Shown here: piece by piece, positions 56,169 to 62,238 of the stretch
Layout of the letters: every line of letters starts with the position of its first letter
Numbering within the stretch: position 1 is the stretch's first letter
NCBI RefSeq assembly: GCF_044222565.1
Contig: NZ_JBGANA010000033.1
Coordinates: 5,923 to 69,922, forward strand
Reading direction: 5' to 3'
From: Prosthecobacter sp.
Lineage (GTDB): Bacteria > Verrucomicrobiota > Verrucomicrobiia > Verrucomicrobiales > Verrucomicrobiaceae
DNA: 64,000 nucleotides
The notes under the pieces: model-generated
Database searches by the model: none
Seen by the model: only the letters and a program-made list of their open reading frames with translations
What the model was told of the DNA's origin: nothing
Made by a program: the position numbers and the translations under genes

Positions 56169-57296
56169 TCAGCCCAGCGTGAATGCCGGCAGCTTCACGA
56201 TCTTGCCACCTGCCATGGCGGACTGATGTGCGCAGAGGCCCACGCAGGTCCAGTTGGCGGACTGAGTGGCGTTCGGAAAGGGCTGGCGCTTTTCAGCGAG
56301 GGCATTCGCAAACTCGTTGGCAAGATGAGGATGGCTGCCACCATGGCCGCTGCCCTGGGTGAAGCTGAGATGCGTCTTCTTGCCGAGATCATACACGCCC
56401 TTTGTGGTGAAGCGCTGGATCGGCCTGGGCAGGCGTTTGGCAAAATCGGGTGTCTTGATCAATTTCGGGATCTTGTGCTCGGGCAGTTTGGCGCGGTGCA
56501 GGACGAGCGGCTCATGCTCGATGAGCGGCCATTCGATGGAGGCTTTGTCACCATAGACGTCGATGCTTTCACGATACTGGCGGGCGGTGTCAAACAGACT
56601 GCGGATGATGCGGGCGTTCACATCGGTACCTTTAAATTTGATGTGCGCAGTCTCGACAGCAAAGGGGGAGCCGTAACATTTTTGCAATTCTTTGCGCACC
56701 GTGCCGGAACCAAAGCAGCTCACGTATTCGGCGGGCTTGCCGATCATGCCGGCCACGGGGCCGACGCAGTGGGTGGCGTACCACATCGGCGGCAGGCCGG
56801 GCCAGTAGTTCGGCCAGCCGTCCATGTCCTGCTGGTGGGAGGCCTGCACGAACTGCAGCTTGCCCAGCTTGCCTTGATCGAGCTGCTCCTTCATGAAGAG
56901 GTACTCGCGTGCATAGACGACGGTCTCCATCATCATGTACTTAAGGCCGGTCTTCTTGACGAGATCGCAGATCTTTTTGCAGTCTTCGATGCTGGTGGCC
57001 ATCGGTACGGTGCAGGCCACGTGCTTGCCCGCTTTGAGCGCCTCGATGCTCATCCATCCATGATCAGGAATGGGGGAGTTGATGTGCACGGCGTCGATGT
57101 TCGGATCCTTGAGCATCGCCTTGAAATCCGTATAGCGCACGTCCACATCGAAGGCATCACCGATGGTGTTGAGCTTCTTCTCATCGCGCTGGCAGATGGC
57201 GTAGCAGGTGGTCAGCGGGTGGCGCTGCCAGATGGGTATGAATTCCGCCCCGAAACCGAGGCCTACGACGGCGATGTTGAGCTTTTTGTCTGACAT
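56169..57296 (-). CDS. Gfo/Idh/MocA family oxidoreductase
   Basis: IAVVGLGFGAEF, IDAVHINSP, GKHVACTVPMA, YATHCV.P; ATG 57296. Confidence 0.9.
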   Translation of the reverse strand: MSDKKLNIAVVGLGFGAEFIPIWQRHPLTTCYAICQRDEKKLNTIGDAFDVDVRYTDFKAMLKDPNIDAVHINSPIPDHGWMSIEALKAGKHVACTVPMATSIEDCKKICDLVKKTGLKYMMMETVVYAREYLFMKEQLDQGKLGKLQFVQASHQQDMDGWPNYWPGLPPMWYATHCVGPVAGMIGKPAEYVSCFGSGTVRKELQKCYGSPFAVETAHIKFKGTDVNARIIRSLFDTARQYRESIDVYGDKASIEWPLIEHEPLVLHRAKLPEHKIPKLIKTPDFAKRLPRPIQRFTTKGVYDLGKKTHLSFTQGSGHGGSHPHLANEFANALAEKRQPFPNATQSANWTCVGLCAHQSAMAGGKIVKLPAFTLG

Positions 57297-57393
57297 GATG
57301 TTTGGTAGGATGACGCGGCTGTTATAGGCGGGAACGGCGGGAAATGGGAAGGACAAAGTTTAGGAGGAATCGGACGGAGAGGGCCGCTGCGCG

Positions 57394-57525
57394 GCGTTTG
57401 CAGTTGTTTGCAATGGCTGAGGGCTTGCTGCGCAAGCGTTTGCAGTTGTTGGAAGAGAGTTCCGCTTCTGGTCCATCTGACAACCATTGCAAACCATCGC
57501 AAACCACTGCAAACAATCGCCAACC
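57394..57525. repeat. Inverted tandem-decamer element between divergent genes
   Basis: Left arms GCGTTTGCAGTTGTT x2 (57394, 57436); right arm caaccattgc-aaaccatcgc-aaaccactgc-aaacaatcgc-caacc (57481-57525), the reverse complement of the same GTTTGCRRTK unit. Confidence 0.85.
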
Positions 57526-57530
57526 CTCCA

Positions 57531-58511
57531 ATGCTTACTTCCGACTTCGACTACCACCTGCCGCCTGAACTCATTGCCAGTGAGCCGCTGGTGGAGAGAT
57601 CGGCCTCGCGCATGATGGTGGTGCACAGGAAGGAGGGTCGGATCGAGCACCGGATGTTTCGGGAGGTCGGAGAGTTTGTGTCCGAAGAGGCGGGAGACCT
57701 GCTGGTGCTGAATGACACGAGGGTGGTTCCCGCGCGCTACTTCACCGACAAAGGGCACGAGGTGCTGCGGTTGCAGATCCTGACGCCGACCCGCTGGCGC
57801 TGCATGGTGAAACCGGGGAAGAAATTTCGTGTTGGTCACACCGCCCGAATCGGCGAAGCCATAGGCACGGTGGTGGAGATCATGGAGGACAATGGTGACC
57901 GCATCATCGAGTTCGACCGTGTGGTGGATGAGACCAAGCACGGGCACCTGGCGCTGCCGCATTACATGGGGCGTGATGATCAGCCGGCGGATCGTGAGCG
58001 GTATCAAACCGTGTTCGCACGAAGCGAAGGCTCCATCGCTGCGCCGACTGCGGGGCTGCACTTCACGCCGGAGGTGCTGAATCCGCTGCCCCATGTCTTC
58101 GTAACGCTGCATGTGGGTGTGGGCACATTTCAGCCGGTGAAGGTGGAGAACATCGCGGAACACAAGATGCACTCCGAAGTGTATGAAGTTTCAGCCGCGA
58201 CGGCTCAGGCCGTGCACGACGCGAAACGGGTGATTCCTGTGGGCACTACAGCGCTGCGCACGCTGGAGACAGTGGCGCGTGATCATGGCAAGGTCATAGC
58301 CACGCAGGGCAGCACGGATATTTTCATTCATCCGGGTTTTGAGTTTAAAGTGGCGGGTGGGCTGCTGACGAATTTCCATCTGCCCAAGTCCACGCTCATC
58401 ATGCTAGTGAGTGCGTTCGCGGGCAAAGAGCTGGTGATGGAGGCGTATGCAGAGGCGATTCGGGAAAGGTATCGCTTTTTCAGCTATGGGGACTGCATGA
58501 TGATTGTGTGA
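57531..58511 (+). CDS. queA: S-adenosylmethionine:tRNA ribosyltransferase-isomerase
   Basis: SDFDYHLPPELIA, LVLNDTRV, LPHYM, DRERYQTVFA, AAPTAGLHFT, TLHVGVGTFQPV, LLTNFHLPKSTL, YRFFSYGDCM. Confidence 0.98.
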   Translation: MLTSDFDYHLPPELIASEPLVERSASRMMVVHRKEGRIEHRMFREVGEFVSEEAGDLLVLNDTRVVPARYFTDKGHEVLRLQILTPTRWRCMVKPGKKFRVGHTARIGEAIGTVVEIMEDNGDRIIEFDRVVDETKHGHLALPHYMGRDDQPADRERYQTVFARSEGSIAAPTAGLHFTPEVLNPLPHVFVTLHVGVGTFQPVKVENIAEHKMHSEVYEVSAATAQAVHDAKRVIPVGTTALRTLETVARDHGKVIATQGSTDIFIHPGFEFKVAGGLLTNFHLPKSTLIMLVSAFAGKELVMEAYAEAIRERYRFFSYGDCMMIV

Positions 58512-58554
58512 CGAGGATGCTCCTTGCCAGAGCGAAGGCCCCGAGACGCTCGTG

Positions 58555-58578
58555 TGCAGGCAGGAGTGCCCACATCAC
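58555..58578 (-). repeat. REP-like palindrome, third copy of the 33.8-kb family
   Basis: Reverse complement GTGATGTGGGCACTCCTGCCTGCA matches 33807-33830 at 23/24 positions; lies between convergent queA and aas. Confidence 0.75.
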
Positions 58579-58612
58579 TTTTCCCAGGCCAGTTGCGGCG
58601 CAACTGGGCAAC

Positions 58613-60799
58613 TTACGTCCCCGCCTTCGCAATCTTCTCGCAGCTCTGCACGTCCAGCTTGCCGGAGGCGAGCACAGGGATGTCGCTGACGCGGATCATC
58701 TTTTTGGGAATCCAAAGTGGTGGCATGCCTTTGTCGAGAAGGCGGTAGCGGAGGTCCAAGATCTCCTGGTGCTCGGGGCCGCCGGGCATGCTGGTGAGAA
58801 GGATGAGAGCCTCTCCTTTGTCCACGTCCGGAACGCCAACGACGGCGATCTTGCGCACGGTTTCGTTTTCGAGCCCCATGGCTTTCACCAGCGCTTCTTC
58901 CACGGTTTCATGCGGCACCATCTCACCGGCGATCTTGGAGAAGCGGCTGAGGCGGCCTTCGATGTAAAGAAAGCCATCGAGGTCCACGCGACCGATGTCC
59001 CCCGTGCGGAACCAGCCGTCCTTGAGCACTTCGGCGCTGCGCTTGGGATCATTGAGGTAGCCTTCGAAAACGTTCGGCCCCTTGAACCAGATCATGCCGC
59101 TTTGATGCAGCGGCACCGGAGCGTCCGTTTCAGGATTGGTGATGCGCACCGCCATGCCGGGCACGACGTGTCCCACCGATCCCTGCCGGTGGCTGGGAAG
59201 CCAGCTGTGTCCGCTCTCCTCATCACCGAGCGGTTCGGGGTCCGGAAGGTTCAGGTTGGAGGCAGGCGAGGTTTCGGTAAGGCCGTAGCCTTCCAGCACA
59301 CGTTTGCCAAACCGTGCCTCAAAGGCATCTGCCACGGTGCTTGGCAGCTTTTCCGCGCCGGTGACGCAGTATTTGATGGAGTTCAGCGACTCACGGTTCA
59401 CGCCGCGCAGGTAGCTGCGCAGGAAGGTGGGCGTGGAGATCATGAGGGTGATGCGATATTTCTCGATCAACTGGGCGAGCTTTTTCACCTCCATGGGCGA
59501 GGGATAGGTCACAAGATGCAGCCCGTAAATGATCGGGAACCAGAGCGTGACCGTGCAGCCAAAGCTGTGGAAGAGCGGCAGGCAGCCAAGGATGCTGTCA
59601 TTGCTCTGCATGCCGAGGCGGCTGCCAAACTGCATGACGTTGGAAATGAGATTGCGGTGGGTTAGAGCAACTCCTTTTGGCTCACCGGAACTGCCGCTGG
59701 TGAAAAGCAGCAGCGCCTCCTTGCGCCCGCCTTTCTTCGAGATGCCGAGCAGCGCCGCCAGCACTGCGGCGGGCAGCACCTTGCTAAGAACCAGCCACTT
59801 GGCGATGGAGACTTTCATCTTCGGCAAAATGCGTTCGATGAGGATGAGCTGCTTGCTCGGCGGCCAGGGGAAGCTTTGCATCTTGCGCACAAAAATGTCC
59901 GCAGTGAGGAAGCGGTCGATCTCGCCACGGCGGATGGCGCTGTCGATGGCGGCACGTCCGGCGGTGAAGTTGAGATTCACCGGGATTTTCCCTGCGAGTA
60001 CGACGGCCACATTGCAGATGAGGCCGCCAAGACCCGGAGGCAAAATGATCCCGACGCGCGCCTTCTTGGTCTCACGCTTCACCACCTGGGAAAGAGCCAG
60101 CGCAGTGGCAAAGACCTTGTCAAAGCGCAGGATTTTTTCATCCTTGCCGTCCACCACGCTGTTGCGGGTGCCATGCTTTTTAAAGCCCTGGATCAAAGCG
60201 TAGCCAAGACTGAGCTCAAGCGCGGCACATTCACTGATGCTTTGCTCAGAGAGCAGCAGCAGGGCCTCCTGATAGCTGGCGAGATTGGCTTCCGTCCCCT
60301 GTAGCAGCCGGCCAAAATTGAAGATTGCTTCGGCGTCGGTGTAGCGGCGCTCGATCGGCAGTGCGGTATCCTGCCGCCGGTGCACATACATCGGCAGCAC
60401 CGGGATTTCGGCCTTGAGCAGAAACTCGAGTTTTGTGCCCGGCACGGTGGTCATGGGCGAGGCCATCGTGGCCGCCTCGGCTGGGAGATAAATGATGACG
60501 GAGCCGGATTTGGCGGCGTCCGCCATGGCGCGGCGGTAGGCGGAGACCTCCGTCTCGCCGGGGGAAAACTCCAGGGCATGAACGTGCTCCCGCTCAAGAT
60601 GCGCCCGCAGCAGCGGGTGCAGCGCCGCACCTTTTCTCACCACGTAAACCACTTCACGTCCTCCCAGAACGAGTTCCAGCCGGAGCAGGTCAAAGTAACC
60701 GAGCTGGCTGGGCAGGATCATGAATCCGCCTCCTGAGGGCAGGTTCTCTTTGCCGAGGATCGTGAGGTCTTTGAGGGTGACGGGCTTTTCAGAGGCCAT
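58613..60799 (-). CDS. aas: Aas-like protein: degenerate acyltransferase-like N-terminus + acyl-ACP synthetase (AMP-binding) domain
   Basis: LLFTSGSSGEPKGV.LTHRNL, LPLFHSFG, EGYGLTETSP, GPNVFEGYL, GWFRTGD, RLSRFSKIAGEMVPH. Confidence 0.85.
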   Translation of the reverse strand: MASEKPVTLKDLTILGKENLPSGGGFMILPSQLGYFDLLRLELVLGGREVVYVVRKGAALHPLLRAHLEREHVHALEFSPGETEVSAYRRAMADAAKSGSVIIYLPAEAATMASPMTTVPGTKLEFLLKAEIPVLPMYVHRRQDTALPIERRYTDAEAIFNFGRLLQGTEANLASYQEALLLLSEQSISECAALELSLGYALIQGFKKHGTRNSVVDGKDEKILRFDKVFATALALSQVVKRETKKARVGIILPPGLGGLICNVAVVLAGKIPVNLNFTAGRAAIDSAIRRGEIDRFLTADIFVRKMQSFPWPPSKQLILIERILPKMKVSIAKWLVLSKVLPAAVLAALLGISKKGGRKEALLLFTSGSSGEPKGVALTHRNLISNVMQFGSRLGMQSNDSILGCLPLFHSFGCTVTLWFPIIYGLHLVTYPSPMEVKKLAQLIEKYRITLMISTPTFLRSYLRGVNRESLNSIKYCVTGAEKLPSTVADAFEARFGKRVLEGYGLTETSPASNLNLPDPEPLGDEESGHSWLPSHRQGSVGHVVPGMAVRITNPETDAPVPLHQSGMIWFKGPNVFEGYLNDPKRSAEVLKDGWFRTGDIGRVDLDGFLYIEGRLSRFSKIAGEMVPHETVEEALVKAMGLENETVRKIAVVGVPDVDKGEALILLTSMPGGPEHQEILDLRYRLLDKGMPPLWIPKKMIRVSDIPVLASGKLDVQSCEKIAKAGT

Positions 60800-60874
60800 G
60801 GGTGGGAGGCAGAATGCAGGTTTGGCGTACGTAAGCGGGGAGAGACGCGCATGCCAGCGGGAAAGCAGAGGGAA

Positions 60875-60984
60875 GTTGACGGTAGTTTACAGTTGTTGAC
60901 GATGGTTGACGGTGGAAAGAAAGAGCCAAACCACCCTCAACGCTCGAGCACCGATCCCTCAGCCGCCGTCAACCACCGTCAACC
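60875..60984. repeat. Inverted tandem-decamer element between divergent genes
   Basis: Left arm gttgacggta-gtttacagtt-gttgacgatg-gttgacggtg (60875-60914), 48-nt spacer, right arm ccgccgtcaa-ccaccgtcaa-cc (60963-60984). Confidence 0.85.
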
Positions 60985-60996
60985 GCCCCTTCCCCC

Positions 60997-62238
60997 ATGC
61001 CCCCTCCCCCGCGTTTTCCCCGCCGTGATTCGCCCCCGCCGCCTCCGCCCGGAAGCGACGGCTGGCTGCGGCCCTGGGCACAGATGAAGTACTTTTCCTT
61101 TCATCCGGCCGTATACCCCAACATGCTGCGTGCGGTGTCTCCAGACGCCGGGCCGGGGGATCTGGTGAACGTCTATGACAAGGAAGGGCAGCTCTTTGGC
61201 AGCGGTTTTTACAATGCGAACGCCCGCGTGCCGCTGCGGGTGCTGCAGCATGGCGAGGATGTGCTGAATGAGGACCTGCTGGACGCCCGGCTGGATGCCG
61301 CGCTGGATCTGCGACTGAAAACGCTGCGGCTCAACGAAACGACCGACGCCTGGCGGGCGGTGTCCTCGGACGGGGACGGCCTCAGCGGACTGGTGGTGGA
61401 CCGGTATGGCGATGTGCTCTCCATCGAAGTGACCTCCCTGGGAGTCTGGCGCCGTCTTTCCCGCTGGCTGCCCAAGCTGCACACTGCACTAGGCACGAAG
61501 CAGCACGTCATCGAGGTTGATCCAGACATCGCCCGGGTTGAGAACATGCGCCGGGCGGACGTGCCTGAAGCGGACGATCCAGCCCCCCGCAGCGTACGAA
61601 TTCGCGAAAATGGCGTGCGCTATCAGGTGAGCTTCGAAGACGGGCACAAAACGGGTTTCTTCTGTGATCAGCGGGACAACCGCCAGAAATTTGGCCACCT
61701 TGCCCGAGGTCGGCGCGTCCTGGACCTGTGCAGCTACACCGGGGGGTTTTCCCTGAACGCCCGCGTGCTCGGTGGCTGCGAGGATGTGACGGCCGTGGAT
61801 CTCGATGAAAAAGCCATCGCCCAGGGCAAGAAGAATGCGGATTTAAACCAGGTCCGAATCGACTGGGTGCATGCGGATACTTTCAGCTGGGGCCGCCAGA
61901 TGCAGCAAAACGGATCGCTCTGGGACGCCGTGGTGCTGGACCCGCCGAAGCTCGTCTTCTCCCGCGATGCGGAAGAAGGCCAGCTCGGCCGCAACAAATA
62001 CTACGATATGAATGCAGTGGCCCTCGGCCTGCTGAAGCGTGGCGGCCTGTTCGTCACCTGCTCATGTTCCGGGCTGCTGGATGTCGCTGAATTTGAGGAG
62101 ATTGTCATGCGTGCCGCGCACCGGAACAAGCGCCGGCTGCAGATCCTTGACCGCACGGGGGCCGGAGCGGACCACCCGGTCATGTCGAATTGTCCGGAGA
62201 GCCGCTACCTGAAGGTGCTGTGGTGTCTGGCGTGGTGA
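60997..62238 (+). CDS. RlmI/RlmK-family SAM-dependent rRNA methyltransferase
   Basis: PUA-like N-terminus; SDGDGLSGLVVDRYG, GHKTGFFCDQRDNR, RVLDLCSYTGGFS, VVLDPPK, TCSCSG, ESRYLK. Confidence 0.92.
   Translation: MPPPPRFPRRDSPPPPPPGSDGWLRPWAQMKYFSFHPAVYPNMLRAVSPDAGPGDLVNVYDKEGQLFGSGFYNANARVPLRVLQHGEDVLNEDLLDARLDAALDLRLKTLRLNETTDAWRAVSSDGDGLSGLVVDRYGDVLSIEVTSLGVWRRLSRWLPKLHTALGTKQHVIEVDPDIARVENMRRADVPEADDPAPRSVRIRENGVRYQVSFEDGHKTGFFCDQRDNRQKFGHLARGRRVLDLCSYTGGFSLNARVLGGCEDVTAVDLDEKAIAQGKKNADLNQVRIDWVHADTFSWGRQMQQNGSLWDAVVLDPPKLVFSRDAEEGQLGRNKYYDMNAVALGLLKRGGLFVTCSCSGLLDVAEFEEIVMRAAHRNKRRLQILDRTGAGADHPVMSNCPESRYLKVLWCLAW

Follow-up and report, generated by a model that had tools for sequence, protein, structure and literature searches.

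What is the block of short tandem repeats that lies between the divergent aas and rlmI genes of this Prosthecobacter genome? We analyzed a window of 64,000 nucleotides that contains the block (the window is the whole stretch of DNA under study), along with the genome of the window (G000; 8.15 Mb, 60.5% GC) and the genomes of related bacteria. A first-pass annotation of the window had described four tandem decamers on the left of this block and inverted units on the right, next to the rlmI ATG, and both can be read directly from the DNA.

From the aas side, the element starts with a G-rich linker or "head" (GCAGAGGGAA; 60865-60874, + strand), which precedes unit 1 of the left arm and fits the genome-wide head profile described below. 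The left arm (60875-60914, + strand) reads GTTGACGGTA GTTTACAGTT GTTGACGATG GTTGACGGTG. These four type A units fit the decamer GTTKACNRTN, and the arm is near the 40-nt type A consensus GTTGACGGTG GTTTACGGTT GTTGACGATG GTTGACGGTT. A 7-nt center, GAAAGAA (60915-60921), separates the two arms, and its first bases are conserved in G014, the closest relative. The right arm is on the - strand. It has units 4 and 3 in decayed form (GTTTGGCTCT and GTTGAGGGTG; 60922-60941), which were recognized by gapless alignment to the left arm of the element at 57.4 kb and to the arms of a third element on contig C27; then a 22-nt module (GCTGAGGG plus a GC-rich palindrome; 60942-60963), which lies between units 3 and 2 and is also found at 57416-57437 (+ strand); and then units 2 and 1 (GTTGACGGCG and GTTGACGGTG; 60964-60983), which can be read directly. 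A C-rich linker, CGCCCCTTCCCCC (60984-60996, + strand), is the reverse complement of a head and abuts the start codon of rlmI, so the ATG at 60997 is about 12-13 nt beyond the last inverted unit. This linker agrees with the G-poor, C-rich context of start codons in this genome.

On the - strand, 60922-60983 has the order unit 1, unit 2, 22-nt module, unit 3, unit 4, and no gaps are needed to align it to 57396-57457 or to either arm of the C27 element. Because this region aligns gaplessly as units plus module, the aas/rlmI element is a compact foldback with a 7-nt center and one partly decayed arm. The 48-nt spacer that had been annotated between the arms is mostly two decayed right-arm units and the module. 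The module, which also occurs at C27:~561.78-561.93 kb in G000, consists of GCTGARGG and a 14-nt GC-rich palindrome whose stems show compensatory changes among copies (CTTGC/GCAAG, CCCGC/GCGGG, and CCTGC/GCAGG). It is REP-like, and it has a GGCTGA lead-in in common with the REPs that flank a RAYT gene at C27:565.4 kb.

The genes on either side are an AMP-binding gene (acyl-CoA synthetase or Aas-like, with Pfam PF00501 and PF13193; 58613-60799, - strand) and, divergent from it, an rlmI-like rRNA methyltransferase with PUA and SAM methyltransferase domains (PF17785 and PF10672; 60997-62238, + strand). The ATG at 60997 is the true start of rlmI, because a proline-rich N-terminal extension stays in frame across congeners; indels within it are in multiples of 3 in seven close and three distant congeners. 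This extension (29 amino acids, MPPPPRFPRRDSPPPPPPGSDGWLRPWAQ; 60997-61083) precedes the PUA domain and is found genus-wide. Adjoining the aas start and outside of the repeat is a highly conserved block (60800-60864, - strand), which is near-invariant between G000 and G014, is conserved in seven species, and is a probable leader, promoter, or regulatory element of aas. These 65 nt are conserved far better than the neighboring repeat arms. A search of 56900-61400 against Rfam gave no matches at E ≤ 1, and we found neither a sigma-70 promoter nor an intrinsic terminator at the aas/rlmI locus.

Two other sites in the window are related to this one. A sister element of type B (GTTKGC units; 57396-57524) ends 5-6 nt ahead of the queA ATG, and the 9/10 match that had been noted between one of its units and a unit at aas/rlmI is correct. 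Pattern matching also located the lone type A arm that had been placed near 33978; it spans 33974-34014 on the - strand and reads GTTTACGGTG GCTGAACGATT GTTGACGGCG GTTGACAC. The two-unit pattern GTTKRCNNTNGTTKRCNNT, with at most one mismatch, matches the window 10 times, as compared to 0.20 ± 0.40 times in 100 dinucleotide shuffles, and all 10 matches are at 33.97, 57.4, or 60.9 kb. The similarity between the sites is therefore well above chance level. The aas/rlmI element also folds more stably than mononucleotide shuffles do (-47.0 versus -33.7 ± 5.0 for the + strand and -56.6 versus -41.3 ± 4.3 for the - strand), or 2.7-3.6 standard deviations below them.

The proposal that the three sites belong to a dispersed family held up across the genome. 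We defined arrays as two or more units that match GTT[GT][AG]C..T., and we found about 77 of them in the 8.15 Mb of G000. Type A (GTTKAC) accounts for 43 of them and type B (GTTKGC) for 33, and a unit of the minority type is present in only five of the 77. The GTT..C..T skeleton is invariant, the period is exactly 10 bp, and four units is the modal length (39 of 77 arrays). The four-unit arrays have a common, position-specific 40-nt consensus (the type A form is given above), which indicates that they probably descend from master copies and did not arise by local slippage. Unit number can alter by slippage, atop the four-unit norm. Expanded arrays that resemble VNTRs have 9-12 units in G000 (C23:13647-13766, C21:145478-145567, and C13:13164-13263) and about 24 units in G014 (C18:156337-156572).

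The arrays are polar, with a G-rich head (…GGGGGA) before unit 1 and the tail GTTKNCCRGAGG after the last unit. Genome-wide, 58%-77% of arrays have G at each of positions -6 to -2 of the head, and 74% have A at position -1. Arrays pair tail to tail, with their heads facing out: there are 13 such pairs within 130 nt and no head-to-head (tails-out) pairs. A complete element has two inverted arms of 20-50 bp and is about 90-230 bp overall. Most arrays (69 of 77) are intergenic, according to a crude gene caller that was trained on the data at hand, and pairs sit between divergent, convergent, and co-directional genes. The outer ends are often next to genes. In about 39 of the 77 arrays, no more than 15 nt separate the head from the start (14 arrays) or stop (25 arrays) of an ORF, versus about four arrays for the tail. 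With a limit of 45 nt, 30 heads are near stop codons and 20 are near starts. If an arm adjoins a start codon, it is always the C/A-rich one, which ends in …CAAC(C).

Both arms agree in their majority type in 30 of 30 pairs; mixed A/B elements are present in other genomes. Between loci, the closest match that we saw among arms, as judged by eye, was about 37/40, which gives no indication of recent bursts in G000. Nor do the two arms of a pair match each other better than expected. Complementarity at variable positions is 0.44 for true pairs and 0.48 for chimeric pairs (19 pairs, p = 0.85), so a perfect hairpin is not maintained. As the family is star-like, this missing covariation counts only against the maintenance of pairing. 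An all-against-all BLAST of the tail-side sequences gave almost solely arm-to-arm matches, along with a few small modules that are common to several loci. Two multi-kilobase stretches of G000 have no predicted genes (C19:21.3-26.4 kb and C16:123.7-125.8 kb) and are filled by G-rich repeat modules, which include words of the CACGGAT, GCAGAGG, and CACAGAGG types, as well as arrays of both types. One of these stretches surrounds what, from its translation, may be a NusG/UpxY-type antiterminator-like gene.

The family is confined to one lineage, the Verrucomicrobiaceae. Among congeners, the type A pattern was found in 11 of 19 genomes, as compared to 0 of 12 from other genera of the order (0-1 matches for reversed-pattern controls), and the type B pattern in 26 of 46 (essentially none for the control). 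Across 185,579 species, with one genome each, the type A pattern is present only in Prosthecobacter, Brevifollis, Verrucomicrobiaceae or Verrucomicrobiota MAGs, and one MAG that is labeled as Akkermansia. Counts vary greatly between congeners: they are about 100 in each of G000, G001, G014, and G033 and zero in G007, G010, G011, G016, G017, and G018, each of which is at least 93% complete. G002, G008, G047, and G055 are array-rich as well, and G034, G039, and G043 also have no arrays. The distant congener G008 has the identical four-unit, head, and tail design. A search of the literature on repeats in Prosthecobacter found nothing. The decamer arrays make up a previously undescribed repeat family that is specific to this lineage, and its members are short, polar, non-coding, and dispersed.

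Orthologous gene junctions show how copies come and go. The aas/rlmI element is carried by six of seven close species. It is present in G000, G001, G002, and G006, degenerate in G004, and represented by the left arm alone in G012; the whole element is decayed in G007 and it is absent from the distant clade. It is type A in G000, whereas G014 and G006 have type B in both arms. Despite this switch, G000 and G014 share about 97% identity in the flanking non-coding sequence (60796-60864).

We also compared the junction between the dapB stop codon and the folK ATG across about 25 species. In at least 11 species, the junction is empty, with a spacer of 1-15 nt. In at least six (four with type B and two with type A), an element occupies the exact interval between stop codon and ATG, in the order stop, 0-5 nt, four units, GTTTCCAAAC, two to four inverted units, 1-4 nt, and ATG. 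In at least five species, including G000, the element has decayed. Elsewhere, G000 and G014 differ by an exact 40-nt (four-unit) indel, which leaves the seed GTTTGCCAG, and by a 74-nt indel. At two sites with conserved flanks, G014 has a decamer element where G000 has a heptamer element (C15:38028-38120 in G000 versus L090 in G014, and C28:~254.7 kb versus L102). The array at the swapped junctions behaves like an exchangeable cassette. We found no consistent direct repeat flanking the filled dapB/folK junctions, L085, or L096; one possible ATGC repeat at L096 is unconvincing. Overall, these alignments show gain, loss, decay, type switching, or replacement of copies at fixed gene junctions. Orthologous sites with conserved flanks clearly differ among the congeners in whether an element is present, as expected of mobile DNA. 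The first-pass annotation had proposed that the idea of a mobile family be given up if there were no further copies and no insertion polymorphism, and we found plenty of both.

The heptamer repeats are a parallel case. G000 contains about 212 tandem-repeat loci with a period of 7, of which 179 are intergenic, and the families include ATGATTT, GGATGCT, AAACTTT, AAACTTG, and ATGAATT. Within the window, an AAACTTG array with 4.6 copies is at 33054-33085. The ATGATTT/ACGATTT family has 40 arrays in G000, with a modal length of four units, and these arrays resemble the decamers in that they have a G-rich head, a CCGGAGG tail, tail-to-tail pairs, and heads that abut ORF ends. The distribution of this heptamer family across genomes is independent of that of the decamers (44 matches in G000 and none in the decamer-rich G001 and G033). 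Each repeat family therefore has its own dynamics, which speaks for replicating families and against a general tendency toward slippage.

The sequence at the ends of the elements resembles the usual context of start codons in this genome. G000 is poor in Shine-Dalgarno sequences, with GGAGG upstream of about 3% of ATG starts, and such scarcity is already known in Verrucomicrobia (PMC10783764). In G000, the 40 nt that precede starts are rich in C and poor in G, 68% of starts have C at position -1, and both CAACC and CCACC have their peak right against the ATG. This is a Kozak-like context (for example, 60984-60999 and 57525-57533 in the window). Lone arms also have a preferred strand: the G/T-rich strand of the arm is on the G-rich strand of the replicore for 32 of 40 decamer arms and 23 of 23 heptamer arms. 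We considered whether the bias of the decamers is evidence for transposition via single-stranded DNA and rejected this as non-specific, because 73% of all long intergenic regions also follow GC skew. This skew is very strong in G000, in coding and intergenic sequence alike (mean |skew| of 0.064 per 80 kb), and genes are not co-oriented with it (46% co-oriented).

If the elements are mobile, then a mobilizing gene or a cargo might be found with them. In the 8.15 Mb of G000 and in 49 loci of 8 kb each from about 25 other genomes, we found no cargo between the arms; and no autonomous copy or parent insertion sequence (sought as heads-out arrays 0.8-4 kb apart that enclose an ORF). Nor did we find a linked nuclease, recombinase, or reverse transcriptase. 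The description of these sites as empty forms of a cassette is unsupported, because no cargo-bearing copy, transposase, convincing target duplication, or link to a RAYT was found. Genes of the Y1_Tnp family (RAYT or IS200-like) are unusually numerous in these bacteria, with 23 matches to PF01797 in G000 and 2-27 per congener. We inspected 13 of the matches in G000 by eye and scanned 10 ORF matches for the pattern (using a Y1 HMM built from eight of them), and there were no decamer arrays within about 400-600 nt on each side of the Y1/RAYT-like genes that we examined. The canonical genes are flanked by GC-rich REP hairpins of their own. Furthermore, the numbers of Y1 genes and of arrays do not vary together across genomes; G017, for instance, has 27 Y1 matches and no arrays. 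We therefore rejected a link to RAYTs, as the Y1 genes that we examined are bordered by other REP hairpins and by no arrays.

Our preferred interpretation, with a probability of roughly 0.55, is that the family is a non-autonomous foldback element similar to REPINs, BIMEs, or MITEs, rather than a conserved regulator site. Each arm consists of a G-rich head, typically four degenerate 10-bp units (GTTKACNRTK for type A or GTTKGCNRTK for type B), and a tail of the type described above. Two arms placed tail to tail form a foldback of about 90-130 bp, in which either strand reads with the G/T-rich arm at its 5' end and the C/A-rich arm at its 3' end. Such an element would spread, or would once have spread, as selfish DNA that some enzyme mobilizes in trans, and lone arms may be the remnants of pairs, as has been proposed for REP singlets (PMC3116915). 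Insertion upstream of a gene could replace the native leader without destroying initiation; this may be tolerated because the C/A-rich strand resembles the Shine-Dalgarno-independent (C/A)ACC-ATG leaders of this genome. In particular, the right arm and the C-rich linker at aas/rlmI probably form part of the 5' leader of rlmI. The foldback interpretation has weaknesses. The lack of a convincing target duplication, of autonomous or cargo-bearing copies, of arrays beside the Y1 genes that we examined, of recent bursts, and of extra complementarity between the arms all count against it, and random transposition does not explain why heads, but not tails, abut ORF ends (about 39 versus about four of 77 arrays). 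Also, the persistence of elements at the same junctions across deep splits, or the re-occupation of these junctions by different families, could reflect a function for the host instead. These two patterns may point to site-specific installation, or to a function in protein binding, as a leader, or as a coupling hairpin.

If the arrays are phased sites for one or two host DNA-binding proteins (nucleoid-associated or of the OmpR/PhoB winged-helix type), with A and B as two specificities, then this would account for the invariant skeleton, the exact 10-bp period, and the modal four units, and also for the purity of type within arrays (a minority unit in just five of 77) and between the arms of all 30 pairs. 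If a protein reads the arms, then no extra complementarity between them is expected. The motifs GTTTACA and GTTGAC also resemble half-sites of the OmpR family. Nevertheless, we consider this unlikely. Half of the arrays are outside of promoters, after stop codons or between convergent genes or cistrons; in close relatives, sites are lost, decayed, or swapped for arrays whose 7-bp period cannot hold one face of the helix; and entire genomes of congeners lack the family. An operator or iteron should be in promoters or origins and be conserved with its gene, and these arrays are found at more stops than starts. The flanking genes are functionally incoherent as well (aas-like, rlmI, queA, an oxidoreductase, and dapB/folK). 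The suggestion in the first-pass annotation that the arrays bind a regulator or nucleoid protein in divergent promoters thus fits poorly: the window does have arrays just before start codons, but across the genome they are as often after stops, between convergent genes, or between cistrons. We also considered inferring two protein specificities from the purity of types, which is weakened by the existence of mixed A/B elements; two master copies would give similar purity.

A role in RNA has its own attractions. The C/A-rich arm might be a Shine-Dalgarno-independent leader that is sequestered by the paired G/U-rich arm, so that the elements couple the translation of adjacent cistrons or form 3'-end hairpins where genes converge. 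At filled dapB/folK junctions, the base of the stem is 0-2 nt from the stop codon and 1-4 nt from the ATG; the arm that adjoins an ATG is always C/A-rich with an …AAC(C) end, like starts genome-wide; and pairs fold well below mononucleotide shuffles. Pairing of the arms without compensatory maintenance argues against this role, as do the dispensability of elements at the same junction in many congeners, the lack of an Rfam match, and the orientation of lone arms, which tracks the GC skew of the replicore (32/40 decamer and 23/23 heptamer arms) and not gene direction. We judge it quite improbable. Local replication slippage from short seeds, which would make arrays unrelated by descent or dispersal, could produce the long arrays seen in G000 (9-12 units) and G014 (about 24 units), and the exact four-unit indel does leave a seed. 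But the same types of units, with the same position-specific variants across four units and the same heads and tails, recur at about 77 loci and in distant congeners, while reversed-pattern controls give essentially nothing. The common 40-nt consensus and the family-specific counts per genome largely refute slippage as the origin of the arrays, and we give it very little credence. A bolder proposal, which we hold to be doubtful, is that these repeats are a new class of element: a polar four-unit module with interchangeable units (A, B, or heptamers) in a frame of G-rich head and CCRGAGG tail, which a dedicated enzyme would install and exchange site-specifically at ORF boundaries, and whose C/A-rich strand would double as a portable Shine-Dalgarno-independent leader or coupling hairpin.

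Few families of intergenic repeats are recognized in bacteria (REP, BIME, MITE, and STRR), and for most of them the mechanism is unsettled. The traits that make this family unusual are the four phased tandem units in each arm, the outer ends that abut start or stop codons, and the replacement of one family of units by another at shared junctions of close relatives. If a mobilizing activity is found, it would be a new way to move or template short DNA in bacteria, and if the C/A-rich arm is a true leader, it would provide a handle on Shine-Dalgarno-independent initiation in Verrucomicrobia. The arrays are also well suited for strain typing and as markers of assembly breakpoints in Prosthecobacter and Brevifollis.

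How does the decamer family compare to known systems? The attC sites of integrons have the polarity RYYYAAC ... GTTRRRY, and their cassette arrays are clustered next to intI and carry cargo ORFs. We rejected an attC or gene cassette because the decamer elements have the reverse polarity (GTT... at the left end and ...AAC at the right), occur as dispersed copies, and lack cargo. REPs and REPINs are short repeats outside of genes whose copies number in the tens to hundreds and which are mobilized by RAYTs, which are Y1 HUH enzymes (Bertels & Rainey 2011, PMC3116915; PMC3337134); the inverted doublet is probably what replicates, and singlets are its remnants (PMC3116915). The decamer family is like them in copy number, in its long persistence within a lineage and in the re-occupation of positions while the sequences differ. 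As with REPINs, inverted doublets that can form hairpins are over-represented (13 versus 0, with folds below those of shuffles). A REP is an imperfect palindrome of 20-60 nt, whereas a decamer arm has four 10-bp units in direct orientation and is not internally palindromic; a small palindrome is present only in the optional 22-nt GCTGARGG module. Also, RAYT genes are flanked by their cognate REPs, and among those that we examined, we found no RAYT gene with decamer flanks.

BIMEs and the BOX elements of pneumococci are modular mosaic repeats. They share with the decamer family a head/tail polarity, variable internal tandem modules, and extra motifs between units, which in the decamers are the 22-nt module with its GC hairpin; the sequences of the units, the 10-bp period, and the host lineage differ. 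Correia and ERIC elements are MITEs, and the decamer elements are similarly small and gene-adjacent, with terminal inverted repeats and presence/absence polymorphism. Unlike MITEs, their arms are tandem repeats with a variable number of units, and we saw no convincing target-site duplication and no parent insertion sequence with matching ends. In eukaryotes, Foldback (FB) transposons have long inverted termini of ~10-bp tandem repeats around a variable center. This is a likeness in architecture only, as FB elements are eukaryotic, are of kilobase scale, and have associated coding copies. Finally, heterocystous cyanobacteria reportedly contain short tandemly repeated repetitive (STRR) heptamers, described by Mazel and colleagues in 1990. 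Like the STRRs, the repeats that we describe are dispersed intergenic tandem arrays with several families per genome (of 7-nt units and here also of 10-nt units), and they differ in that the modal number of units is fixed at four, the heads and tails are defined motifs, and the arrays form inverted pairs that abut the ends of ORFs.
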